Source of the DNA: a virus
Lineage: Duplodnaviria; Caudoviricetes
Virus record (IMG/VR): IMGVR_UViG_3300032319_000326
Location: 27,734 to 91,733 of that record
Length of the DNA: 64,000 nt
Direction: 5' to 3' (one strand)
Shown here: piece by piece, positions 2,001 through 56,714 of the stretch
Position numbering within the stretch: the stretch's first letter is position 1
How the letters are laid out: every line of letters begins with the position of its first letter
Program-made: the position numbers and the translations under genes
Notes under the pieces: model-generated
Seen by the model: the letters and a program-made list of their open reading frames with translations, nothing else
What the model was told of the DNA's origin: nothing
The model's database searches: none

Positions 2001-3979
2001 TGTCAAAATTAATTAATAAAACGTTTAATGCAAATACAAAAGATATTAATTATCTTAATAGAGATTTCGCATCTTTACGTCAACAACTAATCGACTTTAC
2101 TAAACAATATTACCCACAAAGTTATAAAGATTTTAGTGAAAGTTCACCTGGTCAAATTTTTATTGAACAAGCTGCCTATGTTGGTGACGTACTTTCGTAT
2201 TATACGGATCAACAGTTTTTTGAAAGTTTTTTACAATTTGCACAAGATCGTAGAAATATTATAAACGGAGCTAAATCTTTAGGTTATAAACCAAAAGTAT
2301 CGTCTGCTTCTTCTACTATGGTAGATGTATTTCAGTTGTTACCAGCTACCCGTTCAAACGATAATGTATATAGTCCAGATGAACGATATTGTTTGATATT
2401 AAAACCATTTACACAATTAACGAGTGTATCAGGCGTTAACTTTATTATAGAAGAAAGTATTGATTTTAGCCAAGACACAAAGTTTTCGCCTAGAGAAATA
2501 ACAGTTTATAGTCGCGATAATACAGGAGCTCCTCAGTTTTATTTGATTAAAAAATCAACAAAAGCTTATTCTGGTACCTTAATTGTAAGACAATTTTCGG
2601 TCAATGAACAAATTCCGTTTTACAGTATAAAATTAGATGAAACCAATGTTCTAAAAATTGTTAGTGTAACAGATCTAAATAATATAAACTATTATGAAGT
2701 GGATTATTTAGCACAAGATACAATTCCAATCGAATTGGATAACGTACCTTTAAATAATCAAACACTTTCACAATATCGAAATGAAACTCCGAAGGTTTTG
2801 AAATATTTAAGAACTGAAAAAAGATTTGTAACTACAATTGATGAAAATAATCAAACAACTATTCAGTTCGGTGCTAATACGGAAAATTATGATAATACCA
2901 TTATAATTCCAAATCCGACTAACATCGGAGTATCTCTTTCGAACTTAAAGAATTTAAATATTTCTTTAGATAACACAAATATATTAAAGGCAAATTCATA
3001 CGGAGTTTCTCCATCTAATACTACATTGACAGTTGTATATATAATTGGTGGGGGATTAAGTTCTAATGTTAACTCAGGTGAAATTAAGAGTATAATTGCA
3101 TCATCTTACTTAAACGACGTTACATCACTAACCGACAGTGAAGTTACGTTATTAAATACAATTAAAAACTCATTACGAGTTAACAACGTAGAATCTTCAA
3201 CTGGTGGAGATGATGCTGAGTCAGATGAAGAAATCAGACAGAATGCAATATTGAATTTTTCTACACAAAATCGTATGGTTACTGAAGACGATTTCTTATT
3301 GAGAGTATATGCGTTACCTCCACAACTGGGAAATATTGCAAAAGCATATATACAAAGCAATTTAACAAGAGAAGTACAATATAATGGATTTATTACAGGC
3401 GTAGTGAATACAAACAACAATTCTACTGTTGATTTAACACCTTTAAATCCATTAGATAGAAGAAAATTTTTACAATCGAATAACCCATTTACAAATAATT
3501 TGTATTTGTTGGGATACAATTCAAATAAAAATCTAACACAAATTAATCCAGCTACACTTCAAAATTTAATTACATATTTACAGAACTATAAGATCTTGAC
3601 TGATAAGATTAACATAATAGATGGTTATATTATCAATATAGGAGTACGATTTAAAATCACTGTATTTAAAGGATTTAATAAATCAGAAGTATTAAACAAT
3701 TGTATTCAATCTGTGAAGAGCTTTTTTTCTATCGATAACTGGAGTTTTAATCAACCGATTAATCTTAGCCAAATCAATTTTGAAATAATGCAAAATGAAG
3801 GTGTACAATCGGTAAGTGAGATTATAATCAACAATTTAACTATTGACGATGGTAGTTATTCATCCGTTGCATATGATATAAACATTGCAACACAAAATAA
3901 TATCATATATCCACCAAAAGATCCAGCTATATTTGAAGTTAAATATATTGACTCTGACATTAAAGGACTTGTAGTATAA
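2000..3979 (+). CDS. Baseplate wedge protein, T4 gp6-like (baseplate J family)
   Basis: RDFASLRQQLIDF, DFSESSPG, AYVGDVLSYY, STGGDDAESDEEIR, QNRMVTEDDF. Follows gp25. Confidence 0.85.
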   Translation: MSKLINKTFNANTKDINYLNRDFASLRQQLIDFTKQYYPQSYKDFSESSPGQIFIEQAAYVGDVLSYYTDQQFFESFLQFAQDRRNIINGAKSLGYKPKVSSASSTMVDVFQLLPATRSNDNVYSPDERYCLILKPFTQLTSVSGVNFIIEESIDFSQDTKFSPREITVYSRDNTGAPQFYLIKKSTKAYSGTLIVRQFSVNEQIPFYSIKLDETNVLKIVSVTDLNNINYYEVDYLAQDTIPIELDNVPLNNQTLSQYRNETPKVLKYLRTEKRFVTTIDENNQTTIQFGANTENYDNTIIIPNPTNIGVSLSNLKNLNISLDNTNILKANSYGVSPSNTTLTVVYIIGGGLSSNVNSGEIKSIIASSYLNDVTSLTDSEVTLLNTIKNSLRVNNVESSTGGDDAESDEEIRQNAILNFSTQNRMVTEDDFLLRVYALPPQLGNIAKAYIQSNLTREVQYNGFITGVVNTNNNSTVDLTPLNPLDRRKFLQSNNPFTNNLYLLGYNSNKNLTQINPATLQNLITYLQNYKILTDKINIIDGYIINIGVRFKITVFKGFNKSEVLNNCIQSVKSFFSIDNWSFNQPINLSQINFEIMQNEGVQSVSEIIINNLTIDDGSYSSVAYDINIATQNNIIYPPKDPAIFEVKYIDSDIKGLVV

Positions 3980-32866: not shown

Positions 32867-32908
32867 AGTTTGGTGTAATATTTATCTATTAGATAAGGAG
32901 TATTGTAT

Positions 32909-34414
32909 ATGACTGAACGAGGTAAAAAAATAAGAGAAGCATTTTTCAAAAAGTATGGTGTTTATCATCCGTCTCAATTGCCTGAAGTTAAAGCTAAAAT
33001 AAAGCAAAAGAGAGACAGTGGTGCGTATGACAATATGGTAAAAAAGATGAAGGATACTCTAAAAGAAAAATATGGAGATGAAAACTATAACAATGTAGAG
33101 AAGGGAAAACGCACCAAATTGGAGAAATATGGAGATGAAAACTATAATAACAGAGATAAAATGACGCAGACCAACAATAAGAAATATGGAATGAATGTTT
33201 CACCTAACACTCTTAAAAGAACTCAAGAACGTGCATCTAATGGAGATATTGGTTTTAAATCTGATCAGTTTAAACAATATCTTGAAGATAATAATATAAA
33301 AAATGTGTCTCAATTATCGTGCGTTAAAGAAAAAAAGAGACAGGAGAAGATCAATTGTATGGTTGCAAATATTTTTGACGGCGGGCGTCTTAATAACGTT
33401 GTGTTACCTATTTTTCGACGAGAAGAATATACGGGGTGTGATTATGATAAAATGTATAAGTTTAAATGTTGTAAATGCAACAATGAATTTCAAGATAACT
33501 TATACTCTGGAAATATTCCACGTTGTTTGAATTGTTATCCTCACAATAGGTTTAAGTCATCAATAGAAACGGAGATTTTAGATTTCTTACATTCGTATAA
33601 CATAGAAACAAAACATCATGATAGAACTATTTTAAATGGATACGAAATTGATATATCAATACCATCACGCAATTTTGCAATTGAATGTGATGGAGTTTAT
33701 TGGCATAGTGAAATTGCTGGTAACAAGAACAAACATTATCATCTTAACAAAACTTTAAAGTGTAATCAGCAAAATATTCAATTGATGCACATATGGGATT
33801 GGGAATGGTGGTGTAAACAAGATATAATAAAAAGTATTTTATTAAGTAAGCTTGGTAAGTCCAAAAGAATATTTGCACGTAAATGTGAAATAAAACAAGT
33901 GATTAATGACGAAAAAGCTGCATTTTTGACCGATAACCATATACAGGGAAATGATACATCATCTATCAGATTGGGATTATATCACAACGATGTTTTGGTC
34001 TCACTAATGACGTTTGTTAAATCTAGATATGACAAAAAATATCAATATGAGTTATCTAGATATTGTAATATATTAAACACAAATGTAATAGGGGGTGCAT
34101 CTAAACTATTCAGTTATTTTGTAAAAAATCACGATGTAAATTCGATTGTAACGTATAGTGATAGAAGATTGTTTACTGGTAATTTATATAAACAAATTGG
34201 TATGTCATTTGTAGATAACACTCCGTCTGGATATCACTATTTTCATAAAAACAAAGGGGTACCAATTGAAAGAACACATTTTCAAAAACATAAATTGAAA
34301 GAAAAGCTTGAAAAATTTGATATTAGTTTAAGTGAATGGCAAAATATGCAAATTAATGGTTATGATAGAATTTGGGATTGTGGACATATGAAATTTAGTT
34401 GGAATCGTAAATGA
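32909..34414 (+). CDS. Free-standing homing endonuclease (Hef-like): KYG repeats, Zn ribbon, Vsr/EDxHD-type nuclease, C-terminal Mom/GNAT-like domain
   Basis: EIDI...AIECDGVYWH, HIWDWEW, FARKC, NHIQG, ELSRYC, GGASKL, TYSDRR, GYDRIWDCG. AAGGAG upstream. Confidence 0.8.
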   Translation: MTERGKKIREAFFKKYGVYHPSQLPEVKAKIKQKRDSGAYDNMVKKMKDTLKEKYGDENYNNVEKGKRTKLEKYGDENYNNRDKMTQTNNKKYGMNVSPNTLKRTQERASNGDIGFKSDQFKQYLEDNNIKNVSQLSCVKEKKRQEKINCMVANIFDGGRLNNVVLPIFRREEYTGCDYDKMYKFKCCKCNNEFQDNLYSGNIPRCLNCYPHNRFKSSIETEILDFLHSYNIETKHHDRTILNGYEIDISIPSRNFAIECDGVYWHSEIAGNKNKHYHLNKTLKCNQQNIQLMHIWDWEWWCKQDIIKSILLSKLGKSKRIFARKCEIKQVINDEKAAFLTDNHIQGNDTSSIRLGLYHNDVLVSLMTFVKSRYDKKYQYELSRYCNILNTNVIGGASKLFSYFVKNHDVNSIVTYSDRRLFTGNLYKQIGMSFVDNTPSGYHYFHKNKGVPIERTHFQKHKLKEKLEKFDISLSEWQNMQINGYDRIWDCGHMKFSWNRK

Positions 34415-37137: not shown

Positions 37138-37941
37138 ATGAATGAAAGGTCTATGTCTAATACCGGAATATATAAAATAAGAAATATCATCAACGATGAC
37201 TGTTATATTGGAAGTGCATCATATACTTTTAATAAACGATGGAATACACATAAACATCAATTAAAAAATAATAAACATCATTCTATTATTCTTCAAAGAT
37301 CGTGGAATAAATACGGAGAAAACAATTTTATTTTTGAAATCATAGAATGTTGTGAACCATCTGAATGTTTAATAAAAGAACAACATTATTTGGATAATTT
37401 AAAACCAAAATATAATATAAATCCTAATGCTGAAAGTCCACTTGGCAGAAAACTTAAACCAGAAGACTGTAAAAAAATATCAGATAGAACAAGTGGTATA
37501 AAAAATCCATTTTTTGGAAAACATCACACAGAAGAAACTAAAAAATTACTTTCGGAGAAATTGAAAGGAAAAAATAAAGGAAAATTTTTGGCAGAAAAAA
37601 ACCCAATGTATAAAAAAACACATTCTGATGAAAATAAAAAAATAATGTCTATATCTAGTAATCAATTTTGGAATAGTGAAATGGGAATAAAATTAAAAGA
37701 AATCAAATCAAAAGAAAAATTAGGAAAAACTAATCAATTTGCAAAAAAAGGAACAGAACATCCGAATTTTGTTTCCACAACATACAAATTTTTAAATAAA
37801 CAATTAAATGAAGAATTCATTGGAACTATGTTTGATTTTAGAAAAAAATATAAACTGTGTTCAGATGTTTACTATCTATTAGATGGGAAAAAGAAAAAGT
37901 ATAAACAATACAAAGGATGGGTTGTAAGTTATGAAAACTAA
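37138..37941 (+). CDS. GIY-YIG homing endonuclease with NUMOD3 repeats (Seg-like)
   Basis: GIYKIRNIIN..CYIGSA, RW..H, EQHYLD, NPFFGKHHTEETKK, NPMYKKTHSDE. Confidence 0.9.
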   Translation: MNERSMSNTGIYKIRNIINDDCYIGSASYTFNKRWNTHKHQLKNNKHHSIILQRSWNKYGENNFIFEIIECCEPSECLIKEQHYLDNLKPKYNINPNAESPLGRKLKPEDCKKISDRTSGIKNPFFGKHHTEETKKLLSEKLKGKNKGKFLAEKNPMYKKTHSDENKKIMSISSNQFWNSEMGIKLKEIKSKEKLGKTNQFAKKGTEHPNFVSTTYKFLNKQLNEEFIGTMFDFRKKYKLCSDVYYLLDGKKKKYKQYKGWVVSYEN

Positions 37942-38596
37942 TACTGGTAAAAATATAAAACTAAAAACGGGTAAATCTAATTTAGATATAGTTAGAAGTT
38001 ATTTAAACGGAGAAAAGGCATTCGTACAAGTTGGCTACGATGCCAATTTGGAGAATAATAAACGCAAAGAAGGTGAAGAATGGGAGGATAGTCAAGGACA
38101 CAAATGGGTTTGGAAGAATAAAAGTAAACGTAGAGTTTCAAAGCGTGCTACGATCATTAATGAAAAACGATGTAAATGTTGTAATATGGATGTTCGTTGG
38201 GGCAATTATTTAGATGATCGTGTTTGGCCTAAAACAACGATGTGTTATGATTGTTTTACAAAATTTCAAACAGATCTTAAACTGATGGGTGTGTTTGATG
38301 TCTATAATGAACTACAGGATTTAAAAAATGAACGTAGTATTCTAGAAGAATATAAAAGAAAATTTGAAGAAAGTCAAAAATTTTGTCATGAAAATCAAGG
38401 TAAGCCTGTTGAATTTTTAGAAGAAGACGGTTCGTTTGAAAGATGGGAAGGTGTCCAAGATTATACTAAAATATTAGAAGACGTGACTAATGATTTGGTA
38501 AAAATTAATGACGGGTTACTAGACATTAATACTAAAATAAAAGAATACGAAGAATTGTATGAGTCAGCCAAGTCTAAGAGAAATAATAAAACGTGA
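37931..38596 (+). CDS. Conserved protein upstream of terminase (CxxC Zn motifs, coiled coil)
   Basis: RKEGEEW, CKCC...CYDC. Overlaps the terminase start. Confidence 0.55.
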   Translation: MKTNTGKNIKLKTGKSNLDIVRSYLNGEKAFVQVGYDANLENNKRKEGEEWEDSQGHKWVWKNKSKRRVSKRATIINEKRCKCCNMDVRWGNYLDDRVWPKTTMCYDCFTKFQTDLKLMGVFDVYNELQDLKNERSILEEYKRKFEESQKFCHENQGKPVEFLEEDGSFERWEGVQDYTKILEDVTNDLVKINDGLLDINTKIKEYEELYESAKSKRNNKT

Positions 38597-39395
38597 GTAT
38601 AAGAAGTGTATAGAAGATCCTATATACTTCATGAAAAAATATGTTAAGATTCAACATCCTATAAGAGGTACGGTTGGATTCGAACTATATCCATTTCAAG
38701 AAGATGCTTTACAAAACTTCGTTGATAATCAATTAAACATTGTTCTTAAGAGTCGTCAGATGGGTATCAGTACTCTTACAGCAGCTTATAGTTTGTGGTT
38801 AATGACATTTCATAATGATAAGAACATTCTTTGTATTAGTATTACCCAAGAAACAGCGAAAGAAATTGTCACTAAGGTAAGATTTGCAAATGACAATCTT
38901 CCAAGTTGGTTAAAAGTTCCATGTGTAGAAGATAATAGATTATCATTGCGATTGAAGAACGGATCTCAAATCAAAGCGGTTTCATCTGCTGGTACAGCAG
39001 GTCGTTCATCAGCACTCTCATTATTAATCATTGACGAAGCTGCATTTATCGATGGCATTGAGGAAATTTGGTTATCTGCTCAATATACATTATCCACTGG
39101 TGGTAGAGCTATCATATTAAGTACGCCAAACGGCGTAGGTAACTTCTTTCATAAAACGTGGGTTGAAGCCGAGGAAGGTAAGAACAAAGACTTCAAGACT
39201 ATTAGATTGCCATGGCATTTACATCCAGAAAGAGATCAATCATGGAGAGATAAACAAACTGAATTATCCGGTGTAAAAGGCGCCGCCCAAGAATGCGACT
39301 GTCTATGGGGAGAGTCTACGATTAGAGTCAGAGATAAAACATCAGGAAAAGAATTTGATATTTCTTTAGAAAAATTGTATTCCGGAGAATTGTAA
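38559..39395 (+). CDS. terL: Terminase large subunit, N-terminal (ATPase) part + 31-aa split intein N-fragment
   Basis: KSRQMGIST Walker A, IIDEAAF Walker B, STPNG. Ends QECD|CLWGEST...LYSGEL. Confidence 0.92.
   Translation: MSQPSLREIIKREYKKCIEDPIYFMKKYVKIQHPIRGTVGFELYPFQEDALQNFVDNQLNIVLKSRQMGISTLTAAYSLWLMTFHNDKNILCISITQETAKEIVTKVRFANDNLPSWLKVPCVEDNRLSLRLKNGSQIKAVSSAGTAGRSSALSLLIIDEAAFIDGIEEIWLSAQYTLSTGGRAIILSTPNGVGNFFHKTWVEAEEGKNKDFKTIRLPWHLHPERDQSWRDKQTELSGVKGAAQECDCLWGESTIRVRDKTSGKEFDISLEKLYSGEL
39300..39392 (+). mobile_element. Atypically split intein, IntN (31 aa)
   Basis: CLWGESTIRVRDKTSGKEFDISLEKLYSGEL: block A starting with Cys, then stop. Confidence 0.85.
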
Positions 39396-39431
39396 TCATA
39401 TGTATTATACAAGAATGTGATTGCGACCCAT

Positions 39432-39485
39432 ATGTGTGTACCTAAAAATTTGTTAGGGTGCAAACTATTTACAATAGACATATGA
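39432..39485 (+). pseudogene. Probable remnant of an endonuclease gene between the split intein halves
   Basis: MCVPKNLLGCKLFTIDI* with ATGA overlap onto the IntC start, preceded by promoter-like TATGTATTA. Confidence 0.45.
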
Positions 39486-40675
39486 TCGATTCAAATGTTA
39501 AACTAAATACCAAGTTTCAAATTTTGACTCCAACAGGTTACCAAGATTTTTTTGGAATCAGAAAAATAAAAAAGGATTGTTACTATAAAATATTATTGAG
39601 TAATGGCAAAATAATAAAATGTTCGGACAATCATCCTTTTATATATAAAAATTCAGAACTGCGATCTCACGATATCAAAATCGGATCAAAAATATCGGGA
39701 GCAAATGGTGTAGATGTAGTTGTCATAACGATAGAAAAATTCGAAAATCTCATTGATTTATATGATATAGTAAACGTCTCCGGCGGTAATGTTTTTAATG
39801 TAGACGGAATTGTTTCACATAATTGTGATTTTAGTACATCTGGTAATCAAGTGGTAAGTGTAGAAGTTCTTGAATTTTATAGACAAACTCATCTAAAAGA
39901 TCCCGTGGAAAAACGGGGTAACAATCAAGATCTATGGATCTGGGATTATCCAAATTATAGTAAAAACTACATATTAACAGCAGACTGTGCTAGAGGAGAT
40001 GGCGGAGATTTTAGTGCGTTTCACGTTTTAGATATTGAAACGATGGAACAGGTTGCTGAATATAAGGGGCAATTAACTACAAAAGATTATGGCAATTTAC
40101 TAGTGAGTGTGGCGACAGAGTACAATAACGCATTGTTGGTTGTAGAAAATAATAATATAGGATGGGCTACATTACAACAGATCATAGACAGAAATTATCA
40201 AAATACATTTTATAGCGCAACTGATTTAACCGTTGTAGACGTGGAAAGATCATATTCCAATAAGTTAAATTCAGCCGATAAAAAATTAGTTGCTGGATTT
40301 ACTACAACTAGTAAAAATAGACCGATGATTATAAGTAATTTAGAATTATTTTTTAGACAAAAACAAATAATTATGAAGTCTAAAAGGTTATATGAAGAGT
40401 TAAATGTTTTCATTTGGAACGGTCATAAAGCCGAAGCTATGAGAGGTTACAACGACGATTTAGTAATGTCTATAGGTATTGGTTTGTGGGTTCGTGAAAC
40501 TGCTTTGAAACTTAGAAACGATCAAATTGCTTATAACAAGGCTATGATTTCTAATATCTCTAAGGTTTCCAGTCAAATAATACTACCTAAAGAAGTAAGT
40601 GCAGTACCAGATCATCATAAAACTATGGAATTTACAGTTAAAGATAAAAAAGAAAGTTTAACTTGGTTAATGTAA
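39482..40675 (+). CDS. terL: Split intein C-fragment (114 aa, 39482-39823) + terminase large subunit nuclease domain
   Basis: ILTPTGYQDF.GI.K, CSDNH (block B), YDI (block F), VSHN|CDF; then ADCARGDG.D and NDDLVM. Confidence 0.9.
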   Translation: MIDSNVKLNTKFQILTPTGYQDFFGIRKIKKDCYYKILLSNGKIIKCSDNHPFIYKNSELRSHDIKIGSKISGANGVDVVVITIEKFENLIDLYDIVNVSGGNVFNVDGIVSHNCDFSTSGNQVVSVEVLEFYRQTHLKDPVEKRGNNQDLWIWDYPNYSKNYILTADCARGDGGDFSAFHVLDIETMEQVAEYKGQLTTKDYGNLLVSVATEYNNALLVVENNNIGWATLQQIIDRNYQNTFYSATDLTVVDVERSYSNKLNSADKKLVAGFTTTSKNRPMIISNLELFFRQKQIIMKSKRLYEELNVFIWNGHKAEAMRGYNDDLVMSIGIGLWVRETALKLRNDQIAYNKAMISNISKVSSQIILPKEVSAVPDHHKTMEFTVKDKKESLTWLM

Positions 40676-40698: not shown

Positions 40699-43600
40699 AT
40701 GGCAGATCAATCATTTCAGGAATTAAGAAATCGTTCATTATTTGCACGTTTGAAACGTTTGTTTTCAAACGATGTAATCGTTCGTAATATCGGAGGTAAA
40801 AAGTTAAAGGTTATTGATACGGATGAAATTCAGTATGCTACGGATCGTAATAGTTTAAGAGATCGATTTAATAGATTGCGTACAAGTTCATATAATCAAT
40901 ATACCAGAGATTTTAATTTATCATATCAAAGCAGTCGTGTAGAACTATTTCGTGATTATGACTGTGTTGGTCCTGATACAATCATACCTCTACCAGATGG
41001 TACTAAACCAACTATAGCTGAACTAACGGAGAGATATAAAGATAAACCCCAAGAAAGATTTTATGTATTTTCATACGATCACGAAACTGACAGTATAAAA
41101 TTAGGTAAAGCATTTCATCCACGTAAAAAGGCAGGTAAACGTCAGGGATACAAAGTTACATTTGATAACGGACAGTATGTAGTTGGAAGTTTGAAACATC
41201 CGTTTATGATGCGAGATGGTTCATATAAACGAATTTTTGAACTAAGAGTCGGTGATTCAGTGATGCCATTTTATGAACATGAATATGGTTATAAAAAGAA
41301 TGGAATTAAACCTTATAGACGAGTTTATAATTTTTCTAAAGGTTATCAATCAATACATAAAATGGTTGTGGAACAATTTCAGAGAAAGTTGAATGGTGAT
41401 GAAGTAATTCATCATAGAGATTTTAACGGGTTTAATAATTCTCCAGAAAATTTACAAATAATGGACCGAAAAAATCACTATGAATTTCATGCTAACCATA
41501 GTAAAAATGTAATATGGAGTGATGAAAATTATGAAAACCAACTCAACAAATTAAAATCACATCCAAATTATATTAACCGTGAGTTTCATCATTGGGATGG
41601 AGAACGAAATGGTGAGAATAACCCGTTTTATGGAAAAGAACATTCTAATGAATCGAATGAAAAGCGTTCAGAGACTCTTAAATCTGTATTTGTTAATAGA
41701 GATCAAACCGGAGAAAAAAATCCAAAATATAGAGGTGATGTAACATTTGATAATGTTAAAGAAAAAGCATACGAATATTACAAAGAATATTCAAAAATCA
41801 ATTTGTGGGATTTCATTAAACATATAAAGTGTGATCATTCTACTCTTCAAAATCGTCTCAAAAAAGAGAAGCATGACTGGAAATCTTTTAAACAAGAAGT
41901 AGAAACTACATTAAATCATAAAATCGTATCTATTGAGATGGTGGGTGAAACAGATGTATATGATGTCACAGTTGAGGAGTATCATAACTTTGCGACTGAT
42001 AGTTGTTTCGTGAAAAATACAATGGATATGGATCCAATTCTAGCATCTGCATTGGACATTTACTCGGATGAATGTACAACCAGAAATGAAATGGGAGAAA
42101 TTCTACAAATCAAATCCACAAACGATGAAATCAAGAATATATTACATAATTTGTTCTACGATATTCTAAATATTGAATTCAATCTTTGGAGTTGGACTCG
42201 TTGTATGGTTAAGTACGGAGATTTCTATCTTCGTCTGCATATTAGTCCTGAATACGGAGTCTACATGGTAGAACCTCTGAGTACCTATTATGTTACCCGT
42301 GTAGAAAATGCTGTGTTGACAAACAAGAACTTTGTTAAGTTTCAAGTCAATCTTCCATATGGAAACAAAATGGAAGATTTAGAAAATTATCAAATTGCAC
42401 ATTTCCGTTTATTGAGCGACAGTAACTTTTTGCCATATGGAAAATGTTTAGTCGGTGAAACTCACGTTGATACCGAATTTGGTTCTAAATATATAAAAGA
42501 TCTACTCATTGGAGAAAAAATATGGTCTTTCAATACAAATAACAAATTGTTCGAATTAACCAGTGTAAAAAACAAAATCAACTCTGGTGTAAAAGAGACT
42601 ATCAAAATTAGAACTCAACACAATTTTATAGAATCTAGCAAAACCCATCCTATTTTAACTTTTAATAAAGTTACAAATGAATTGGAATACAAACAAACGT
42701 CTGATGTCAAGATTGGAGATTTGTTGTTAATAAACGCCAATGAAAACAAAAAATCAAAAATTTGTTATATTAACACAGATTTGGTCGGTTTTAACAAAAA
42801 CGGATGGAAAAATAATGTTATCAACTTACCTAACAACATAGACTGCGAGTTTTCTGAATTAATGGGATTTATGATTGGCGATGGGTGGTTGAGTGGAGAA
42901 AATACTAGAGTGAATTTTGCTATAGGGACAGATGATATACAAAACAAACATTATGCGTCTATTTTAGAAAAATATTCGGGGAAAATCGGAAATTGGTTGT
43001 CTCCCAAGAAAAATTCAGGCGGACAATTTTATGTTGATAACAAAATGTTGGCAACTGTATTGTTTAATAATGGGTTGATTGGAAAAGCAAAAACTAAAAG
43101 AATACCAACGTGGGTGTTTGAATCAAGTGAAGACATACAATTAGCTTTCATTAAAGGATTGACAAACGCCGATGCGTGGAGTTTTGATGATGGATTTGCC
43201 AACAGATATACAATTTCATTATGCAATAAAGATTTGATATATGATTTCAAACGTCTTTTACAATTTAATAATATAAAATCGTCAATACCAACTGAAGATG
43301 ATACCGTTTCAGAGGTGACTATTTGTGGAGTTGATTGTATTAAACATGGGGAATATTCAATAAATTATTATTTGGAAGGCAACAAAAAACAACAACTCAA
43401 AAAATATAATCACTTAGACAATTCTAATATATTGTTGGAACCAGTTGTTAATATTGAGTTTACAGGAGAAAAAGAAACGTGGGATATTCAAGTTGAATCG
43501 GAAAATTCAAATTTTGTAGCAAATGGCGTCGTCGTTCATAATTCGATGTTGGAAGGCGCACGACGTGTTTGGAAACAATTAAGTTTGATGGAAGACGCAA

Positions 43601-44793
43601 TGTTAATTCATCGTATCATGCGTGCACCTGAAAAACGTATTTTCAAAGTTGATATTGGTAGTATACCTCCAAATGAAGTTGATAATCATATGGAACGTAT
43701 TATGAACCAAATGAAAAAGACTCCTTATTTGGATCAACAAACAGGAGACTATAACTTACGTTTCAATCTACAAAACATGGTTGAAGACTTTTTCTTACCT
43801 GTTCGTGGTAGTGATAGTGGTACTAGTATTGATAATTTACCAGGTCTTGAATGGACAGGAACCGATGATATCGAATATTTACGTAACAAGATGATGGCGG
43901 CACTCAAAATTCCTAAGGCATTTTTAGGTTATGATGAATCTCTATCTGGTAAAGCTACATTAGCAGCTGAAGATATTCGTTTTGCTCGTACAATTCAACG
44001 AGTTCAAAGAATTATTGTTAGTGAATTGAATAAGATCGCCGTTATTCATTTATATTCACAGGGATACCGTGACGAATCGTTGGTGGATTTCAGCCTTGAA
44101 CTTACTAATCCATCCACTATATTTGAAAAAGAAAAGATTGATGTTTGGAAGAGTAAGGTTGATGTTAGCAAAGACATGCAAGAAAATAAATTCTTCAGTA
44201 AAAAGTGGATTTATGAAAATGTATTTAGTCTTACAGATCAAGACATGATCGAATTACAAAAACAACTTATCGACGATGCTAAGGGAAATTATAGATTTAA
44301 ACAAATCGAAGAAGAAGGAAATGACCCAGCTATTAAGTTCTTAAAATCAATCGACTCTGATAAAGAAGAAGGTGGTGGTCCGGATGGAGGAACTGCGGAT
44401 GAAACCGATAGTGGATTGACCGGTGGAGATTCGGGCGGTACACCGCCAACCGAACCGCCAACCGAACCGCCAACTGAACCAACGCCTGTAGAACCAGCAG
44501 CTGCTAGTGGTGGCGAAACTAAAGCTCCTACTCCTGCCAAGTTATCTGAACGTGATCAAACTGGCAGAAAAAATGCAAGAAAATATCCATTTGGCGAAGA
44601 TCCACTTGGTACATTAGAAAACAATAGACGTAGTGATTTATCAGTAACTCACAAGTATAAAAACAAATCTCCGTTATCATTAGAATCTCTCAAAGGACTG
44701 ACTAATATGTTAAATACAGTTGAAGAGGAAAAGAAAATTTTAAGAGAAGGAGAAGAAAAATCCTACATGGATGAAAGAAATATAAAAGAATAA
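40699..44793 (+). CDS. Portal protein (T4 gp20-like) with two inteins; ~646 aa after splicing
   Basis: ALDIYSDE, KYGDFYL, PYGK|SMLE, EDAMLIHRIMRAPEKR, EDFFLPVRG, ALKIPK. Confidence 0.93.
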   Translation: MADQSFQELRNRSLFARLKRLFSNDVIVRNIGGKKLKVIDTDEIQYATDRNSLRDRFNRLRTSSYNQYTRDFNLSYQSSRVELFRDYDCVGPDTIIPLPDGTKPTIAELTERYKDKPQERFYVFSYDHETDSIKLGKAFHPRKKAGKRQGYKVTFDNGQYVVGSLKHPFMMRDGSYKRIFELRVGDSVMPFYEHEYGYKKNGIKPYRRVYNFSKGYQSIHKMVVEQFQRKLNGDEVIHHRDFNGFNNSPENLQIMDRKNHYEFHANHSKNVIWSDENYENQLNKLKSHPNYINREFHHWDGERNGENNPFYGKEHSNESNEKRSETLKSVFVNRDQTGEKNPKYRGDVTFDNVKEKAYEYYKEYSKINLWDFIKHIKCDHSTLQNRLKKEKHDWKSFKQEVETTLNHKIVSIEMVGETDVYDVTVEEYHNFATDSCFVKNTMDMDPILASALDIYSDECTTRNEMGEILQIKSTNDEIKNILHNLFYDILNIEFNLWSWTRCMVKYGDFYLRLHISPEYGVYMVEPLSTYYVTRVENAVLTNKNFVKFQVNLPYGNKMEDLENYQIAHFRLLSDSNFLPYGKCLVGETHVDTEFGSKYIKDLLIGEKIWSFNTNNKLFELTSVKNKINSGVKETIKIRTQHNFIESSKTHPILTFNKVTNELEYKQTSDVKIGDLLLINANENKKSKICYINTDLVGFNKNGWKNNVINLPNNIDCEFSELMGFMIGDGWLSGENTRVNFAIGTDDIQNKHYASILEKYSGKIGNWLSPKKNSGGQFYVDNKMLATVLFNNGLIGKAKTKRIPTWVFESSEDIQLAFIKGLTNADAWSFDDGFANRYTISLCNKDLIYDFKRLLQFNNIKSSIPTEDDTVSEVTICGVDCIKHGEYSINYYLEGNKKQQLKKYNHLDNSNILLEPVVNIEFTGEKETWDIQVESENSNFVANGVVVHNSMLEGARRVWKQLSLMEDAMLIHRIMRAPEKRIFKVDIGSIPPNEVDNHMERIMNQMKKTPYLDQQTGDYNLRFNLQNMVEDFFLPVRGSDSGTSIDNLPGLEWTGTDDIEYLRNKMMAALKIPKAFLGYDESLSGKATLAAEDIRFARTIQRVQRIIVSELNKIAVIHLYSQGYRDESLVDFSLELTNPSTIFEKEKIDVWKSKVDVSKDMQENKFFSKKWIYENVFSLTDQDMIELQKQLIDDAKGNYRFKQIEEEGNDPAIKFLKSIDSDKEEGGGPDGGTADETDSGLTGGDSGGTPPTEPPTEPPTEPTPVEPAAASGGETKAPTPAKLSERDQTGRKNARKYPFGEDPLGTLENNRRSDLSVTHKYKNKSPLSLESLKGLTNMLNTVEEEKKILREGEEKSYMDERNIKE
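40963..42018 (+). mobile_element. Portal intein 1 (352 aa) with HNH endonuclease and NUMOD3
   Basis: DYD|CVGPDT ... HPF ... IHHRDFNGFNNSPENL ... NPFYGKEHS ... VYDVTV..HNF...CFVKN|T. Confidence 0.88.
42445..43542 (+). mobile_element. Portal intein 2 (366 aa) with LAGLIDADG endonuclease
   Basis: PYGK|CLVGET ... THP ... LMGFMIGDG ... FIKGLTNADA ... TWDIQV...NFVANGVVVHN|S. Confidence 0.9.
44443..44481 (+). repeat. 12-bp tandem repeat encoding PPTE x3 in portal C-terminal tail
   Basis: ccgccaaccgaa repeated. Confidence 0.8.
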
Positions 44794-45728: not shown

Positions 45729-46683
45729 GAAACTCTTAAGTAAATTAAGAGCTAAAAATGAGGCTAGTACCACAGGTACAGGTCCAGTTGCTTCTGGTCC
45801 TGTTGCTGTAGGAGGAGATGCTGCTAGAACACCGTTTGCGTTCTCAAAGAGGGGAGCTAGACCAGATACTTATACACAATTAGGTTATACGTTAGCTAAA
45901 CCGATCAACCGAAGTGCTAATTACAAATTAGAAAATCAAGTATATAGTCAACCAGCATATGCAACTCCTGCTTTTAATATAGAACCAGCAGACACATATA
46001 CAGATGAAAATGGTTTGGTTCAACACAACGATCCTGATATGGATCCTAATTTAATTGGATATAAACAAGGTAGTTTACCATGTACCGAAGGTTTTAATGG
46101 GATGAAATATGAACAAGAAGGTCAACCTCAAACTCCTCAACAAAATCCCTCTGTACCCGTTCAACCAACTGTTCAACCAGTTAAATCACAAACACAACCG
46201 TCTGTAGATGTAAAAACCTACGATGTATTACCCGACTTTACTAAATTTGATACTAAATTAAAAAGTGGTACGGAATCATTAAAAAACAATTTACAAAAAA
46301 CTATACAAGATAAAATTTTAGGCAAAAAGATTGTTGTGAGAGCTAGTAAAGGATATAAACAGCCAGAAACTGATTATACCATAAACGTTACAGGAGTAAC
46401 AATTGATTATTATTATGATAGATATGTAATTATCATAAACGGACGTGAAGAAAATAAACAAAAAGTTGCTAAATTCTTCATTAAACCAGGATTTTCTATT
46501 AAGATATTAGGCTCTGCAGAATTAAAACCAAAAGATCGATATCAAGTTGCTAAATCCCAAGCACTTGTTAATCCTCAGCAATCAGCAACGCCTACAAATA
46601 CGGTAACATCAGATGAAGAAAACTCTCCACCTGAACCAAAATCCGATACCAAAGAACAACCTTCTACACAACCCAAAGTATAA
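45700..46683 (+). CDS. Hypothetical head-cluster protein
   Basis: 327 aa with NEASTTG...TPFAF motif and low-complexity linkers. Confidence 0.55.
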   Translation: MKPHLKHKIKKLLSKLRAKNEASTTGTGPVASGPVAVGGDAARTPFAFSKRGARPDTYTQLGYTLAKPINRSANYKLENQVYSQPAYATPAFNIEPADTYTDENGLVQHNDPDMDPNLIGYKQGSLPCTEGFNGMKYEQEGQPQTPQQNPSVPVQPTVQPVKSQTQPSVDVKTYDVLPDFTKFDTKLKSGTESLKNNLQKTIQDKILGKKIVVRASKGYKQPETDYTINVTGVTIDYYYDRYVIIINGREENKQKVAKFFIKPGFSIKILGSAELKPKDRYQVAKSQALVNPQQSATPTNTVTSDEENSPPEPKSDTKEQPSTQPKV

Positions 46684-46684
46684 T

Positions 46685-48394
46685 ATGAAACAAGTATTGA
46701 TTGATGTAATGCCATTTGAATTTAAGAGATCCGCCTTAAATGAATCGCTTAAGGACGGAAAACTACTAGTTAGTGGTGTATTACAACGTGCTGATGCAAA
46801 AAACCAAAATAATCGACTTTATCCCGAAGATGTACTAAAAAGAGAATCTGAAAAGTACATGCAAAATTTTGTAAAACAACGTCGAGCTATGGGGGAACTA
46901 GATCACCCGGAATGTCACCGAGCTAGTGCTCAAGCATTGACTATTGATGGGTGGAAATATATTGAAGATATTGTTGTTAATGAAAAAATCGCAACTTTAA
47001 ATACAAAAACAAATTCTATAGAATACCAACACGCCTTAAGAGTTATTAATGAACCATATAAAGGTAAAATGATATCTATTAAAGGTAAAAATATAGATTT
47101 ATTGGTTACGCCGAATCATAGGTTTGTCTTAAATACAAGAAATGGTGAATTTATAGAAAAAACTGCGCAAGAAATATTTGAAATTTCAAAGATTAACAAG
47201 TATCCACATTTATCTATTCCGACCGTGGCAGATAATTGGGATGGTATAAAATATGATATTTTCAAAATAGATGCTGTCAAAGTCGAAGATATTGCTAATA
47301 ATCAATCGTTGGATTATACTATCAAACAGACCACCTCTTTAGATTTAAATGCCAGTGCTTGGTTTTCATTTTTAGGTTTTTATTTGGCTGAAGGTCATTG
47401 TGTAGATAGAAATACTTCTACTGGATATGGCATATTTATCACTCAAAACAAAGGTGAAATCGCTGATGAATTCAGAGAAATATTAAAGCAGTTAAGTCCC
47501 GAACTAAAATGGAACGAATGGGACAAAGGAGATGGTGGAACTGTGTTTAACACATCTGACGTGCGGTTATGGACTTATCTTTCCAAATTGGGGAATAAAT
47601 ATAATAAATATATACCTCAAGAAATAAAAGATGCTTCACAAGACCTTCTTCAAAATTTATATGATTGGTATTTAAATGGAGATGGAACAGTTGTGGGGGA
47701 TTATGAAAGATCATCGATATTTTCGGTATCTAAAGAATTAATAGAAGATCTTTATGAAATTATATTAAAACTCGGAATGACCGGGGTTATTAAAGAACAA
47801 GTAACAACCGATGATTATATGTTTGCTGGAAGGTTAATCGAAGCAAAAAATAAAGTTCCGTTATATAGACTATGGATTAAAGAATCTAAAGCTATACATC
47901 TAGATTTTAGATTTATAAAAATAAAAGAAGTTGATTATGACGATAGGGTTTATTGTTTAACAGTTGATAACGGTGTATTTTATTGTAGAGATTTAAACAA
48001 ATGTTTTTGGTCTGGAAATTCATCGGTGGTAAATTTAAAAAATGTCAGTCACAACATTGTAGATATGGGTTGGGATGGTAAAGATTTAGTTGGTACAATA
48101 GAAATTCTTCCTACACCAAGTGGTAATATCTTAAGAGACCTGTTACAATCAGGTATTCTTTTGGGTATCAGTAGTCGTGGATTGGGAAGTGTTAAAAAAG
48201 ATATGCGTGAAAATGCAGATGTTGTACAAGATGACTTTGACTTAATTGCTTTCGACTTCGTAAGCAATCCAAGTACACAAGGAGCTTTTATGTATCCACA
48301 GGGAAAAATCAATGAAAGCGTTGAACAAAAAATAATAGTTAATCCGTATAGTAATGTTGAAAGAATTATTCACAACATTCTATCAGAGTTATAA
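46685..48394 (+). CDS. Prohead protease (T4 gp21-like) with intein; ~200 aa after splicing
   Basis: QRADAKNQNNRLYP, GELDHPE|...|SSVVNLKNVSH, GISSRGLGS, FDFVSNPST. Start reassigned to ATG 46685. Confidence 0.92.
   Translation: MKQVLIDVMPFEFKRSALNESLKDGKLLVSGVLQRADAKNQNNRLYPEDVLKRESEKYMQNFVKQRRAMGELDHPECHRASAQALTIDGWKYIEDIVVNEKIATLNTKTNSIEYQHALRVINEPYKGKMISIKGKNIDLLVTPNHRFVLNTRNGEFIEKTAQEIFEISKINKYPHLSIPTVADNWDGIKYDIFKIDAVKVEDIANNQSLDYTIKQTTSLDLNASAWFSFLGFYLAEGHCVDRNTSTGYGIFITQNKGEIADEFREILKQLSPELKWNEWDKGDGGTVFNTSDVRLWTYLSKLGNKYNKYIPQEIKDASQDLLQNLYDWYLNGDGTVVGDYERSSIFSVSKELIEDLYEIILKLGMTGVIKEQVTTDDYMFAGRLIEAKNKVPLYRLWIKESKAIHLDFRFIKIKEVDYDDRVYCLTVDNGVFYCRDLNKCFWSGNSSVVNLKNVSHNIVDMGWDGKDLVGTIEILPTPSGNILRDLLQSGILLGISSRGLGSVKKDMRENADVVQDDFDLIAFDFVSNPSTQGAFMYPQGKINESVEQKIIVNPYSNVERIIHNILSEL
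46913..48019 (+). mobile_element. Prohead protease intein (369 aa), LAGLIDADG, ends in GN
   Basis: HPE|CHRAS..LTIDGW, VTPNH, FLGFYLAEG, YLNGDG, VYCLTV...WSGN|S. Confidence 0.88.
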
Positions 48395-48473
48395 TTTTAT
48401 AAACACATCAATTTTTTAATTGTTGTGTTTTTTAATAATTCGGTTTATAATTATATACCAAGACAAACGCTGT

Positions 48474-50147
48474 ATGATTAAAAACTGGATAGAGAATAAT
48501 TTAATTTCAAATAAAAAACTTGTATCTAAAAGATGTAAAAAAGAATGGTTTATTAAAAATAAACATATTGATGTGTATAATGAAATCTTATTACAAACTA
48601 ATTTTTTAAATGAATCAACATTTCCGCAAAAAATATGGCATATAGTAAATGAAAAATTTAGTTTGTATAAGTGCAATAATCCTAATTGTAACAATGTACC
48701 TAATTTTTTAACATATACAAGTGGATATTCAAGAACATGTAGTAATGTATGTGCTCAATTTGATCCACAAACTGTAAGCAAAATAAAACAGACCAATTAT
48801 AAAAAATACGGTGTTGAATATGGATTGAGCAATAAAGATATAATTGAAAAACGAAAATTTACATGTGTTAAAAATTATGGAGTTGATAATCCAACCAAAT
48901 CAAAAATTATTTTAGATAAAATTGCAAGTTCAAACAAAGAAAAATATGGTGTTGAATGGATTTTACAAGATCTGCCTAAAAAAGAATTGGGTATGGTTAA
49001 AAAATATGGTGTAAAAAATGCTCAACACAGTGAAGACATAAAACTGAGAACATCGATAACTCGCCGTTCTATATTTTATGATACATTATTTTCTACAGAT
49101 AGATTAAAGAATAAAGTTGTTCCGTTATTTACAAAAGAAGAATATATTATTGGTGGATATTATTCAAATTTTGAATTTATATGTTTAACGTGTAACACTG
49201 AATTTTTTGATTGTTTGGAGGATGGTGATGTTCCTAGATGTACAAACTGTTATAAACATTCTTCGATTTTTGAAGAAGAAGTATTTAATTTTATACAAAG
49301 TTTAGTTACAGTTGATATCATACGAAATGATAAAACTATATTGAACACATTAGAATTGGATGTATATATACCCAAATTAAAATTAGCATTTGAATGTAAT
49401 GGTTTGTATTGGCACGGTGAAATTAATGGTGGTAAAAATAAAAAATATCATATAAATAAAACAGCCGAGTGTAAAAATAAAGGAATACGATTGATTCATA
49501 TATTTGAAGACGAGTGGTTATTTAAAAAAGAAATAGTTAAAAGTAGAATAAAAGATTTGTTAACCAAAACAGAAAATAAAATATTTGCTAGAAAGTGTAT
49601 TATAAAATCGATAAGTTCAAAAGAAAGCAATTTATTTTTAGAAAGTAACCATTTACAAGGAAAAGATAATTCATCTATCAAATACGGATTATATTTTAAT
49701 AACGAATTAGTGTCTTTAATGACATTTGGCAAACTTCGAAGTGCTCTTGGTAATAAAAATATACAGATTGATTGTTGGGAATTGTATAGATTTTGTTCTA
49801 AGTTAAATACAACAATCACAGGCGGAGCTAGCAAATTGTTAAATTACTTTGTTAATAATCACAATCCCCAAAAAATAATAAGTTATGCAGATAAAAGATG
49901 GAGTGTGGGTAATTTGTATGAATCTATAGGATTTAAATTGATTTCCGAAGGAGTTCCTAATTATTGGTACTATGGTCGAGGTAATTCATATAAAAGATAT
50001 CATAGATATGGGTTCGCAAAACATACATTACATACTAAGTTAAATAACTATGATGATAAATTAAGTGAATGGGAAAATATGAAAAACAATGGTTATGATA
50101 GAATTTGGGATTGTGGTAGCATTAAATTTGAATTAATTTTAAATTGA
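48474..50147 (+). CDS. Free-standing homing endonuclease (Hef-like), paralogous to 32909
   Basis: Zn motifs, KYG repeats, ELDVY..LAFECNGLYWH, HIFEDEW, FARKC, GGASKL, SYADKR, GYDRIWDCG. Start reassigned to ATG 48474. Confidence 0.8.
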   Translation: MIKNWIENNLISNKKLVSKRCKKEWFIKNKHIDVYNEILLQTNFLNESTFPQKIWHIVNEKFSLYKCNNPNCNNVPNFLTYTSGYSRTCSNVCAQFDPQTVSKIKQTNYKKYGVEYGLSNKDIIEKRKFTCVKNYGVDNPTKSKIILDKIASSNKEKYGVEWILQDLPKKELGMVKKYGVKNAQHSEDIKLRTSITRRSIFYDTLFSTDRLKNKVVPLFTKEEYIIGGYYSNFEFICLTCNTEFFDCLEDGDVPRCTNCYKHSSIFEEEVFNFIQSLVTVDIIRNDKTILNTLELDVYIPKLKLAFECNGLYWHGEINGGKNKKYHINKTAECKNKGIRLIHIFEDEWLFKKEIVKSRIKDLLTKTENKIFARKCIIKSISSKESNLFLESNHLQGKDNSSIKYGLYFNNELVSLMTFGKLRSALGNKNIQIDCWELYRFCSKLNTTITGGASKLLNYFVNNHNPQKIISYADKRWSVGNLYESIGFKLISEGVPNYWYYGRGNSYKRYHRYGFAKHTLHTKLNNYDDKLSEWENMKNNGYDRIWDCGSIKFELILN

Positions 50148-54802: not shown

Positions 54803-54890
54803 ATTATATACACGATTAGTTTCAAAAAAATTACAACGGTCTCTAGGAAATTAGTTGTATTTTTGTTATAGTATTATATACTTATTGTAT

Positions 54891-56714
54891 ATGAATAAAA
54901 ACGGAAATGAGATAACTATAACAGAAGAAGAATCTAAGACGTGTAAAGTTTGTGATATTCGGTTTGACTCTCCTAGAAAAAGAATGTGGCATATCAAAAA
55001 AGAACATAAACTTGATTTTGAAGAATATGTAATAAAGTTTTATTATGATGGGGTAGTTCCTACATGTTTAAAAACAGGAAAATCTTTGAGTTTTAAAGCG
55101 AACCAACTTGGTCCTTGGTTTAAAAATTATACAAAAAATTGTTTTCCACGAAACCCACATTCACAACAAACAAAAAATAAGATAAGAGATGGGTGTGAAA
55201 AAAATTCAATTAAAAAATATGGAGTAAAAAATATATTTCAATCTGATTGGTGTAAAGAAAAAATTAAAAATACAATGATTGAAAGATACGGTGTAAGAAA
55301 CATAATGGAAAATTGTGATATAAAAGCAAAAGTCTTATCTTCTTTCTTTGAAACTATAAGAAACAGACCAAAAAAAATATATGATGTTACAGATTACGAC
55401 CCAAATAAACCATCATCATTGGAGAATGATTTAAAAAATAAATTAACCGATTTAAATATTGAATTTGAATCTCCGTTTATATTTCAAGGAAAACGGTATG
55501 ATTTTTATATTCCTATAATAAATGTCGTTATAGAATTAGATGGAAACGCTTTTCACAAAGAAACTTTGGAAGAATTAAGTTTAATGACATTAAATAATAG
55601 CATAAATGATTATAATAAAAACAATTTAATTAAAGATACTAAATATAATTTTTACAGAATTAGATATGACACCAATAAATTTATATTTGATGAAAATGAT
55701 GATTTATTTAATAAAATTAAACAATTTGAATATTCCCCAAGTTATTCTATAAAATATAAACAAAAAATTATATCTAAAGAATATTTCTCAAGATATATTG
55801 AGAATAAAGGAAAGGATAAATTAAAATCTTATAGTAAATTATTATTAAAATTTATTAGATTATTTCAACCTAGACTACCGAGATATGAATTGGAGGAGGA
55901 TATAAAAGATGTTATGTCGAAGATTTCACTACAGGATTTTTCCAAAGTTTATTTTGATGGAACATTTCACAACAATATATCTACAACTGGACATAATTAT
56001 TTAAAATATTATTTTGAGTCATATTGGAAATCCGCTTATAAAGGAAACAAATCTCCTGTTGATTGTTGGTTGGATGATGAATTGATGCAAAAAATTATTG
56101 AATATCGAATTGGTTGTAATAATTCGGATGAGGTTTATGATTTTAGTTTGTATCAAATGGTGAAAGGGTTGTCGGCGAACAGAAAAACAGTTTCATTTTT
56201 TAAGCCTACATTAGCTGCTGGAATATATAAACATTATTTAAAAAACAACAATTCTCCGTTTGTTTTAGATCCGTGTTGTGGTTTCGGTGGAAGATTATTA
56301 GGATTTAAATCTGTCTATCCGAATGGAAAATATATAGGTTGTGAACCTAATGTTGAAACTTACAATGAATTGATACAAATGATTGACCGTGAGAAATTTA
56401 CGGATGTTAAAATTTATAATTGTAAGTTTGAGGATTACAATGATACAAAAGATGTCGATTTTACATTTACAAGCATTCCTTATTTTGATTTGGAATCATA
56501 TTCTAATGTAGTAAATTATGATGATTTTAATCATTGGAAAAATACATTTATAAAATCTATAGAATCGTGTCATAATTGTTATATAAATACATCCATCCAA
56601 TTGGCAAAAGAATTGAATTGGAATGTTGTGGATTCGTATATTGTATCAAACGGTTCACATTTTGATAAAAAGAATGGAATGTCTACAAAAACGGAATTGA
56701 TTGTAAAAATATAA
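54891..56714 (+). CDS. C2H2 Zn finger + Vsr/EDxHD-type endonuclease fused to amino-DNA-methyltransferase-like domain
   Basis: CKVC..HIKKEH, KYG repeats, YDFY..VIELDGNAFH; DPCCGFGGRL (motif I) and FTSIPYF (motif IV-like). Start reassigned to ATG 54891. Confidence 0.75.
   Translation: MNKNGNEITITEEESKTCKVCDIRFDSPRKRMWHIKKEHKLDFEEYVIKFYYDGVVPTCLKTGKSLSFKANQLGPWFKNYTKNCFPRNPHSQQTKNKIRDGCEKNSIKKYGVKNIFQSDWCKEKIKNTMIERYGVRNIMENCDIKAKVLSSFFETIRNRPKKIYDVTDYDPNKPSSLENDLKNKLTDLNIEFESPFIFQGKRYDFYIPIINVVIELDGNAFHKETLEELSLMTLNNSINDYNKNNLIKDTKYNFYRIRYDTNKFIFDENDDLFNKIKQFEYSPSYSIKYKQKIISKEYFSRYIENKGKDKLKSYSKLLLKFIRLFQPRLPRYELEEDIKDVMSKISLQDFSKVYFDGTFHNNISTTGHNYLKYYFESYWKSAYKGNKSPVDCWLDDELMQKIIEYRIGCNNSDEVYDFSLYQMVKGLSANRKTVSFFKPTLAAGIYKHYLKNNNSPFVLDPCCGFGGRLLGFKSVYPNGKYIGCEPNVETYNELIQMIDREKFTDVKIYNCKFEDYNDTKDVDFTFTSIPYFDLESYSNVVNYDDFNHWKNTFIKSIESCHNCYINTSIQLAKELNWNVVDSYIVSNGSHFDKKNGMSTKTELIVKI

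Follow-up and report, generated by a model that had tools for sequence, protein, structure and literature searches.

A copy of the empty terL target site in front of the endonuclease gene of a split-intein cassette: a candidate operator

Results

Fractured terL and its split intein

The window, by which we mean the whole 64-kb stretch of DNA that was analyzed, derives from a 91.7-kb IMG/VR viral contig that is estimated to be ~30% complete. Its terminase gene, terL, lies in two adjacent open reading frames (ORFs) on the same strand, 38559–39395 and 39482–40675, which together align end to end with the TerL of Microcystis phage Mel-JY01; all features of the locus described below are on the + strand. 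The N-extein, comprising the ATPase part of the enzyme (38559–39299; Pfam Terminase_6N, E 2.5e-13), ends in AAQECD, as placed by alignment with intein-less TerL. It is followed by an IntN of 31 codons (CLWGEST...SGEL) and a TAA stop (39300–39395, from the sequence and the ORF list). The stop occupies 39393–39395 and the ATG of IntC begins at 39482, with a spacer of 86 bp between them (39396–39481) that, by comparison with the relative L003, is the collapsed remnant of a cassette carrying an endonuclease gene (HEG; handles such as L003 denote the loci and contigs of our comparison set). IntC, 114 codons long and ending in IVSHN (39482–39823), matches Pfam Intein_splicing at E 8.9e-5, below the curated cut-off, and its HN/C junction was read from the sequence. 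The C-extein, the nuclease part (CDFSTSG..., 39824–40675), was delimited by alignment with Mel-JY01 TerL, in which AAQECDCNF runs uninterrupted across the insertion point.

The residues for splicing are present at both junctions, with Cys1 in QECD/CLWGEST and His-Asn and Cys+1 in IVSHN/CDFSTSG, and the intein consists of a short IntN (31 aa) and a long IntC (114 aa). The locus is thus a fractured terL with an atypical split intein, of the terminase class of Dassa et al. (2009), and its halves are predicted to splice in trans. Dassa et al. (PMC2677866) include in their list a terminase locus whose intein is broken at an unusual position, the C-part being long and the endonuclease Vsr-like, and GOS-TerL and AceL-TerL are inteins of the same type, with short IntN and long IntC (PMC11766414). 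IMG/VR holds at least 599 relatives of this terL. In some of them, a second and different short-IntN split intein interrupts terL at the Walker B motif (LLIIDE/CLG...SHN/CAFIDG; L066:2330–4476, L067:335–3481, and L070:1306–4455), where it is accompanied by a 354-aa ORF with TnsA-like and NUMOD3 Pfam matches or, in L066, is HEG-less; the corresponding site is uninterrupted in the window (39024–39053). Two genes upstream of terL, the window also carries a free-standing GIY-YIG/NUMOD3 endonuclease gene (37138–37941) with a TATTTAT box before it.

The endonuclease gene and its deletion

A free-standing HEG lies between the intein halves in L003, L009, L069, L075, L095, and ~60 more relatives, and is absent from the window. 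Its product has 240–250 aa (L003, L005, and L007, 91% identity; L009 and L010, 87%; L069, 51%; L075, 53%; and L095). The deletion in the window, relative to L003, spans 684 bp (228 codons) and is in frame, and its joint falls in the 8-nt repeat TAAAAATT (39443–39450), which L003 has at both breakpoints. The HEG of L003 starts with MIATHMCVPKNYVAVGW and ends with EIKNLLGCKLFTIDI and a stop codon. What is left of it in the window is a mini-ORF at 39432–39485 (MCVPKNLLGCKLFTIDI and a stop), a remnant of 17–22 codons with an alternative GTG start at 39417, in which the first HEG codons are joined to its last 11 (MCVPKN/LLGCKLFTIDI). The TGA of the remnant overlaps the ATG of IntC (ATGA), as does the full-length HEG stop in relatives, and the deletion would therefore seem to have kept translational coupling to the IntC–TerL-C ORF. 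Because the deletion is in frame and its flanks differ from L003 by only 1–2 bases, the loss looks recent. A HEG profile search of the window's own 91.7-kb contig, ~30% of the genome, found no HEG of this kind.

Other arrangements of the same parts occur among the relatives. In L145 (1589–3244) and L147 (1643–3223), TerL-N, IntN, and a Vsr-like endonuclease form one ORF (552 and 527 aa, respectively), with IntC–TerL-C as a separate, overlapping ORF; judged from its layout, this arrangement looks like the in-frame fusion stage of a fractured gene. L150 has two Vsr-like HEG homologues, one free-standing directly upstream of terL and one inside the terL split intein (601–1467 and 2315–3157).

The AlphaFold (AF2) model of the relatives' HEG product, built on an alignment of 34 sequences (pLDDT 88.9), has a C-terminal PD-(D/E)xK domain, which by this model is Vsr-like in fold. 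The domain resembles the catalytic domain of I-Bth0305I (3r3p; Foldseek probability 0.99, E 0.03; Z 6.6 over 73 residues, rmsd 3.9), Vsr (1cw0; Z 6.5), and RAP domains (Z 10), all moderate scores. Within the alignment, Glu-209 and His-215 are invariant, and Asp-211 and Glu-212 are at least 90% conserved. Pfam searches with the relatives' HEG gave nothing above cut-off. Searches of PDB sequences with the HEG profiles gave no match to 3r3p, and their weak matches were zinc-finger-like, namely the DNA-binding domain of I-TevI (E 0.48) and GAL4; weak, sub-threshold hints point to a zinc-finger/NUMOD-like segment in the protein.

The spacer motif and the intein-less allele

The spacer contains CAAGAATGTGATTGCGAC at 39410–39427. 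The spliced terL junction is CAAGAATGCGAC (39288–39299) joined to TGTGAT (39824–39829), and the motif matches it at 14 of 18 positions, the mismatches at 9, 12, 15, and 18 all being synonymous third positions of Q-E-C-D-C-D. Base by base, this is what an earlier note on this DNA had reported from the sequence alone, and its description of the motif as lying between a promoter-like sequence and the ATG of an endonuclease remnant is likewise correct (box at 39399–39407, ATG at 39432). The whole 64-kb window, on both strands, holds no second site within four mismatches of the junction 18-mer. Taken alone, the match to the window's own junction is moderately unlikely, since it is equalled by 10 of 2000 shuffles and by 8 of 489 other in-frame terL 30-mers.

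The comparison with intein-less alleles is more telling. A protein-guided scan of IMG/VR retrieved 80 terL loci, a minority with the intein and most without it. The intein-less alleles of the closest relatives (L014–L022, L033, and L038–L041; ~89% aa identity) read ...GCACAAGAATGTGATTGCGACTTTAGT, and the spacer sequence, counting base 39409, is identical to them at 19 of 19 positions (39409–39427). None of 2000 shuffles and none of 489 other host 30-mers matched as well. An exact 19/19, against only 14/18, indicates that the motif copies the empty allele and not merely the window's own exteins. The central claim of the earlier note, that the cassette stores a likeness of the empty allele, therefore stands on firmer ground than the junction comparison had given it, and we refer to this element, with its 15-nt core CAAGARTGTGAYTGT, as the target-site mimic.

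The empty site is itself nearly invariant as DNA (CAAGARTGTGATTGTGAYTTY) across terL genes that are only ~50% identical as proteins, and QECDCDF is encoded by 68 of 72 empty-site alleles. The mimic contains the left part of this target plus 3–7 nt past the insertion point, and none of the right part. A first copy of the left part, consisting of the N-extein end and the Cys1 codon (CAAGAATGCGACTGT, 39288–39302), sits 122 nt upstream of the mimic as a direct repeat.

Conservation of the mimic across cassette lineages

A profile of five endonucleases brought in 80 more loci. Nearly all are cassettes at this position of terL, and their HEGs are 35–60% identical to that of L003. The motif is kept in these homologous cassettes, whereas its absence from them was what the earlier note had named as refuting its proposal: of the 43 distinct cassettes, more than 30 have an element like CAAGARTGTGAYTGT, lying 119–125 nt downstream of the N-extein copy or, in a second group, 99–105 nt. 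Conservation was measured on 24 lineage representatives with identities below 85% across 100 nt. In the two groups, the majority base accounts for a fraction of 0.85 and 0.93 at motif positions 1–15, compared with 0.50–0.60 in both flanks, and the motif is the most conserved spacer element among the 24 cassette lineages.

What these bases encode varies. In some lineages they form a C-terminal tail of IntN (..LQECDYL and a stop), in others a leader, in frame with the HEG and immediately before its ATG (YSQECDCM..), and in further lineages, in the +1 frame, the N-terminus of the HEG product itself (MNVIAT.. or MNAIAD..). Because the reading frame of the motif differs between lineages, a common protein-coding constraint is excluded, and the conservation is at the level of DNA. 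The five least conserved positions, 3, 6, 9, 12, and 15, coincide with the third bases of the QECDC codons in the target, a pattern whose chance for a given frame is 1 in 3003, with the lineages being not fully independent. The wobble bases of the mimic do not track the exteins of the cassette that carries it. In lineage L111, the cassette's own extein reads QEFDC, as does the nearest empty allele (L168), and the mimic reads QEYDC; 68 of the 72 other alleles read QECDCDF.

The HEG start lies 0–30 nt after the mimic, with the mimic extending over the start codon itself in L009, L095, and L139. No mimic occurs in cassettes whose HEG, lacking a separate spacer, is either fused to IntN or coupled to it in translation (L117, L133, L145, L146, L148, L152, and L154). 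Neither the AT-rich box described below nor the mimic is found in L145, an in-frame IntN fusion; in L146, L148, L152, and L154, which have an overlapping ATG...TAA; or in L117, where the ATG is inside the 3' end of IntN. In L012, another HEG-less derivative, the spacer is 11 nt and the mimic is absent. A divergent HEG subgroup (L146, L148, L152, L154, L161, and L163) has an N-terminal CxxC...HxxxH extension and neither box nor mimic; in this subgroup, the intein is inserted two codons earlier (AAQE/C... ...HN/CDTEF or CDCDF), with the start of the HEG overlapping the stop of IntN.

The AT-rich box and predicted RNA hairpins

The mimic adjoins a recurrent upstream AT-rich box. In the window this promoter-like element is TATGTATTATA (39399–39409), a form degenerate in the window's clade, with TATGTATTA at 39399–39407. 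In other lineages, the corresponding box, which immediately precedes the mimic, is TATTTATA(C), with variants TATTTATAC(G/A) in L069, L110, L116, and L123 and ATATTTATTAA in L095. TATTTAT is enriched 24-fold at −45 to −6 of the + strand ORF starts of this phage (14 of 35 occurrences; Fisher p 1e-13). On account of this enrichment upstream of ORFs, we read the box as a putative promoter element, probably late, and as a candidate consensus of this phage. TATTTAT also resembles a T4 late promoter read in reverse.

RNA folding predicts a hairpin at 39390–39426, with arms at 39390–39401 and 39415–39426 and the AT-rich box in the loop. The 12-bp stem is predicted in both the window and L003 (z −2.05 for a 117-nt piece of the window). 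The predicted hairpins bury the HEG start, as has been described for other HEGs by Dassa et al. (PMC2677866) and by Gibb and Edgell. The part played by the mimic in these structures is not constant: it is the 3' arm in the window and L003, mostly loop in L069, and in L107 it contributes in part to both stems. Where the tail reads QECDYL, it is the 5' arm, pairing with a downstream CxTTCTTG. For ten cassettes of the QECDYL group, RNAalifold returned no consensus structure; a hand-drawn helix, CAAGAAxG/CxTTCTTG, is 82% paired, with covariation not above that of shuffles. An Rfam search of 39200–39700 gave no family at threshold, only a sub-threshold snoRNA (E 0.17). Because the mimic is placed differently in the hairpins of each lineage, a shared RNA fold does not explain the conserved sequence.

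A second host gene and negative controls

A related HEG is found within a PhoH-like gene whose Walker A motif (GKAGSGK/T) is the insertion site of a split intein with a short IntN (contigs L162 and L164; Pfam PhoH, 2e-39). In this cassette, CAGGCAATGGTAAATCTTTAGTAG lies between a TACTTATACA box (TTATACA) and the HEG ATG. It matches the cassette's own junction at 18 of 24 positions (3 of 2000 shuffles and 0 of 677 other host 30-mers did as well) and the empty PhoH allele of a relative, across the insertion point, at 20 of 24 (0 of 400 shuffles, maximized over 48 alleles). As in terL, empty alleles resemble the copy more closely than the exteins of the cassette do. In HEG-less PhoH split inteins (L249 and L250), the IntN–IntC spacer is ~30 nt and at most TAAATC is left of the mimic.

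Other mobile elements gave a different result. The Walker B terL split intein with the TnsA-like ORF (L066, L067, and L070) contains no junction mimic (p 0.13–0.99), and the two inteins of the window's portal gene contain no internal junction copy above chance. The spacers following the sheath, protease, and capsid genes, each compared with the whole upstream gene on both strands, gave matches equalled or bettered by 78, 177, and 133 of 200 shuffles, respectively (p 0.39–0.89). The earlier note had seen in this locus the clearest case of a pattern repeated in the window, and that generalization is not supported by this test. As the controls lack a mimic, the phenomenon is tied to this HEG family and not to every mobile nuclease in the window.

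Discussion

Two elements of these findings are established already. The fractured terL and its class of HEG have been published, and the principle that an endonuclease gene may be preceded by a look-alike of its own target is known from T4 introns. What appears to be new, judged from sequence comparison and from the literature available to us, is a copy of the target site in front of a split-intein HEG. Dassa et al. describe hairpins and late-promoter motifs upstream of HEGs, and we found no mention of a target-site copy before the HEG in the available part of that paper (PMC2677866) or in the literature searched. The locus otherwise has much in common with the fractured genes described there: terL is split at an unusual intein point, relatives have a Vsr-like HEG between the halves, the HEG stop overlaps the downstream start, and HEG-less derivatives exist (their step III). 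It differs from them, as far as that text goes, in that the window is a HEG-deleted derivative that keeps its 5' control region.

The closest parallel to the mimic is the operator of I-TevI, the endonuclease of the T4 td intron. As shown by Edgell et al. (PMC2988022), a look-alike with 15 of 20 positions of the homing site overlaps the late promoter of the gene and is bound as tightly as the homing site itself; transcription is repressed, and the operator is cut ~100-fold less well than the homing site. In both systems, a homing-site look-alike lies at the endonuclease's own promoter and start, inside the mobile element. The terL mimic also appears to lack what efficient cleavage needs, and it is combined with a predicted hairpin and a late-promoter-like box. 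The differences are several. First, the host element is a split intein in the structural gene terL and not a group I intron. Second, the enzyme is predicted to be of the Vsr-like (EDxHD) class rather than GIY-YIG or HNH. Third, the likeness is higher, 15 of 15 in the core and 19 of 19 in the window's clade versus 15 of 20. Finally, in the window, the endonuclease gene is deleted.

By analogy, our favored reading, to which we give about an even chance, is that the mimic is an I-TevI-like operator of the HEG expression unit. The ancestral unit, as preserved in relatives, would consist of the IntN stop, a late-promoter-like AT-rich box, a 15–19-nt copy of the target spanning the insertion point, and the start of a Vsr-like HEG whose stop overlaps the start of IntC. 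An endonuclease that recognizes the empty terL allele would also occupy the look-alike, situated at the promoter and start codon of its own gene, and such occupancy would limit its synthesis by repression. Since the mimic includes nothing of the right-hand part of the true target, the endonuclease would not be expected to cut there.

The one characterized member of the Vsr-like class, I-Bth0305I, offers some guidance on this last point. Assayed as a purified protein, it requires both half-sites for a double-strand break and leaves intron-plus junctions uncut (PMC3239194). If the HEG product behaves like this class, a copy of a half-site should be bound but not double-cut, and binding of the mimic without cutting is, by this comparison, plausible. 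The model places the nuclease domain at the C-terminus after a larger N-terminal part, as in I-Bth0305I (PMC3239194; PDB 3r3p). Unlike that case, there is no match at the level of sequence, and the host element is an intein rather than an intron. By eye, the terL target contains neither the I-Bth0305I consensus TTxG-x6-CxAA nor another convincing pseudo-palindrome, and no operator for I-Bth0305I is described in PMC3239194.

Several other explanations can be considered. First, the copy could be a frozen relic, carried in or created when the HEG invaded the intein, and kept since then as part of the start-codon region or of a hairpin rather than by protein binding. We consider this possible if somewhat doubtful. 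A comparable idea is said to have been put forward by Loizos, Tillier and Belfort in 1994, who reportedly proposed ORF invasion for I-TevII of the T4 sunY/nrdD intron, with the likeness split over both flanks of the ORF and read as an invasion scar. The two cases are alike in that intervening-sequence DNA beside the endonuclease ORF resembles the exon (here extein) junction. The terL copy differs in being whole and 5' of the ORF, in being kept across deep divergence, and in recurring for a second host gene. In favor of a relic, the mimic overlaps the HEG start codon in three lineages and serves as an arm of a hairpin in the QECDYL group as well as in the window, so selection on translation initiation could conserve it in some lineages regardless of its likeness to the target; Dassa et al. 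describe hairpins and late promoters upstream of the HEGs of fractured genes without appeal to target likeness (PMC2677866). Against this, the same 15 bases are retained although both the reading frame and the hairpin register vary by lineage, and the least conserved positions follow the codon phase of the target. PhoH, moreover, has a mimic of its own junction in the same place, inside the expression unit and not at its edge. A neutral relic would also be expected to decay over the distances seen here, at which the proteins are 35–60% identical.

Second, the copy could aid recombination or homing, either by providing a short homology for the repair of double-strand breaks or, as a secondary nicking site, by stimulating the cassette to spread. 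The mimic is indeed a direct repeat of the N-extein end ~122 nt away and is identical to the broken end of the recipient. Reasoning from the anatomy of the cassette, however, if the left end of the recipient annealed at the mimic, IntN would be skipped and the resulting terL could not splice. Further, the mimic does not agree with the exteins of its cassette at wobble positions, and thus there is no sign of ongoing conversion. We regard this explanation as improbable.

Third, the copy could be an active specificity "address," either a transcribed guide or a template re-copied from recipients, such that retargeting among terL, PhoH, and other genes would occur by swapping a segment rather than by evolution of the protein; this seems very improbable. 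The narrower proposal that spacer RNA programs the nuclease to its target, which the earlier note had offered as an option, fares slightly worse still. The copy does have a guide-like sense orientation just downstream of the promoter-like box. Its flanks, however, are unconserved (0.50–0.60) and hold no conserved RNA scaffold, and RNAalifold consensus, covariation, and an Rfam family at threshold are all missing. The enzyme is predicted to belong to the protein-only, Vsr-like PD-(D/E)xK class, whose member I-Bth0305I was assayed as a purified protein (PMC3239194). Lastly, chance resemblance in AT-rich spacer DNA, for which the only moderately unlikely match to the window's own junction (10 of 2000 shuffles, 8 of 489 host 30-mers) might speak, is ruled out, to within a negligible probability, by the 19/19 identity with empty alleles (0 of 2000 shuffles), recurrence in more than 20 lineages, and the replicate in PhoH.

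Returning to the operator reading, its implications for the window itself are limited. The 684-bp in-frame deletion between the TAAAAATT repeats removed the HEG and spared the box and the mimic, together with a short leader ORF that still overlaps the IntC ATG. With the gene deleted, the window encodes no cognate protein in cis, which makes the motif either a leftover or a leader that has been co-opted. Of the earlier note's proposal of an autorepressing operator, the I-TevI precedent is apt, and the intact cognate endonuclease gene is what the window lacks. The mimic in the window is the fossil of a recently deleted gene, possibly still useful, at most as part of a promoter and leader feeding translation of the IntC–TerL-C ORF. 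For the window alone, the result is modest: the homing cycle is seen at a stage where the HEG has recently been lost and the control region remains intact.

If the mimic is an operator in the relatives, the significance is broader. Autoregulation through a homing-site look-alike would not be peculiar to the intron endonucleases of T4, but a recurrent solution, evolved in another nuclease family within split inteins of essential phage genes, and the operator would track each host gene (terL and PhoH). As translation of the IntC–TerL-C ORF is coupled to the HEG ORF, such an operator would also make expression of one half of TerL, an essential packaging enzyme, depend on the selfish element. Mimics of this kind could provide a route, from sequence only, to predicting the recognition sites of uncharacterized homing endonucleases. 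The terL cassettes are, in addition, a source of natural variants of the short-IntN split inteins that are used in biotechnology.

The window is rich in other mobile elements. The portal gene (Portal_T4, 40699–44793) contains two inteins, CVGPDT...CFVKN/T with an HNH/NUMOD-like insert and CLVGETH...VVHN/S with a LAGLIDADG match, and the prohead protease gene (Peptidase_S77, 46613–48394) contains an intein with a LAGLIDADG domain. Large ORFs after the sheath, protease, and major capsid genes (32903–34414, 48420–50147, and 54855–56714, respectively) share DUF7487; one has a REase_MTES_1575 match below cut-off and one a Mom-family match just below cut-off, and the three are likely free-standing nucleases.
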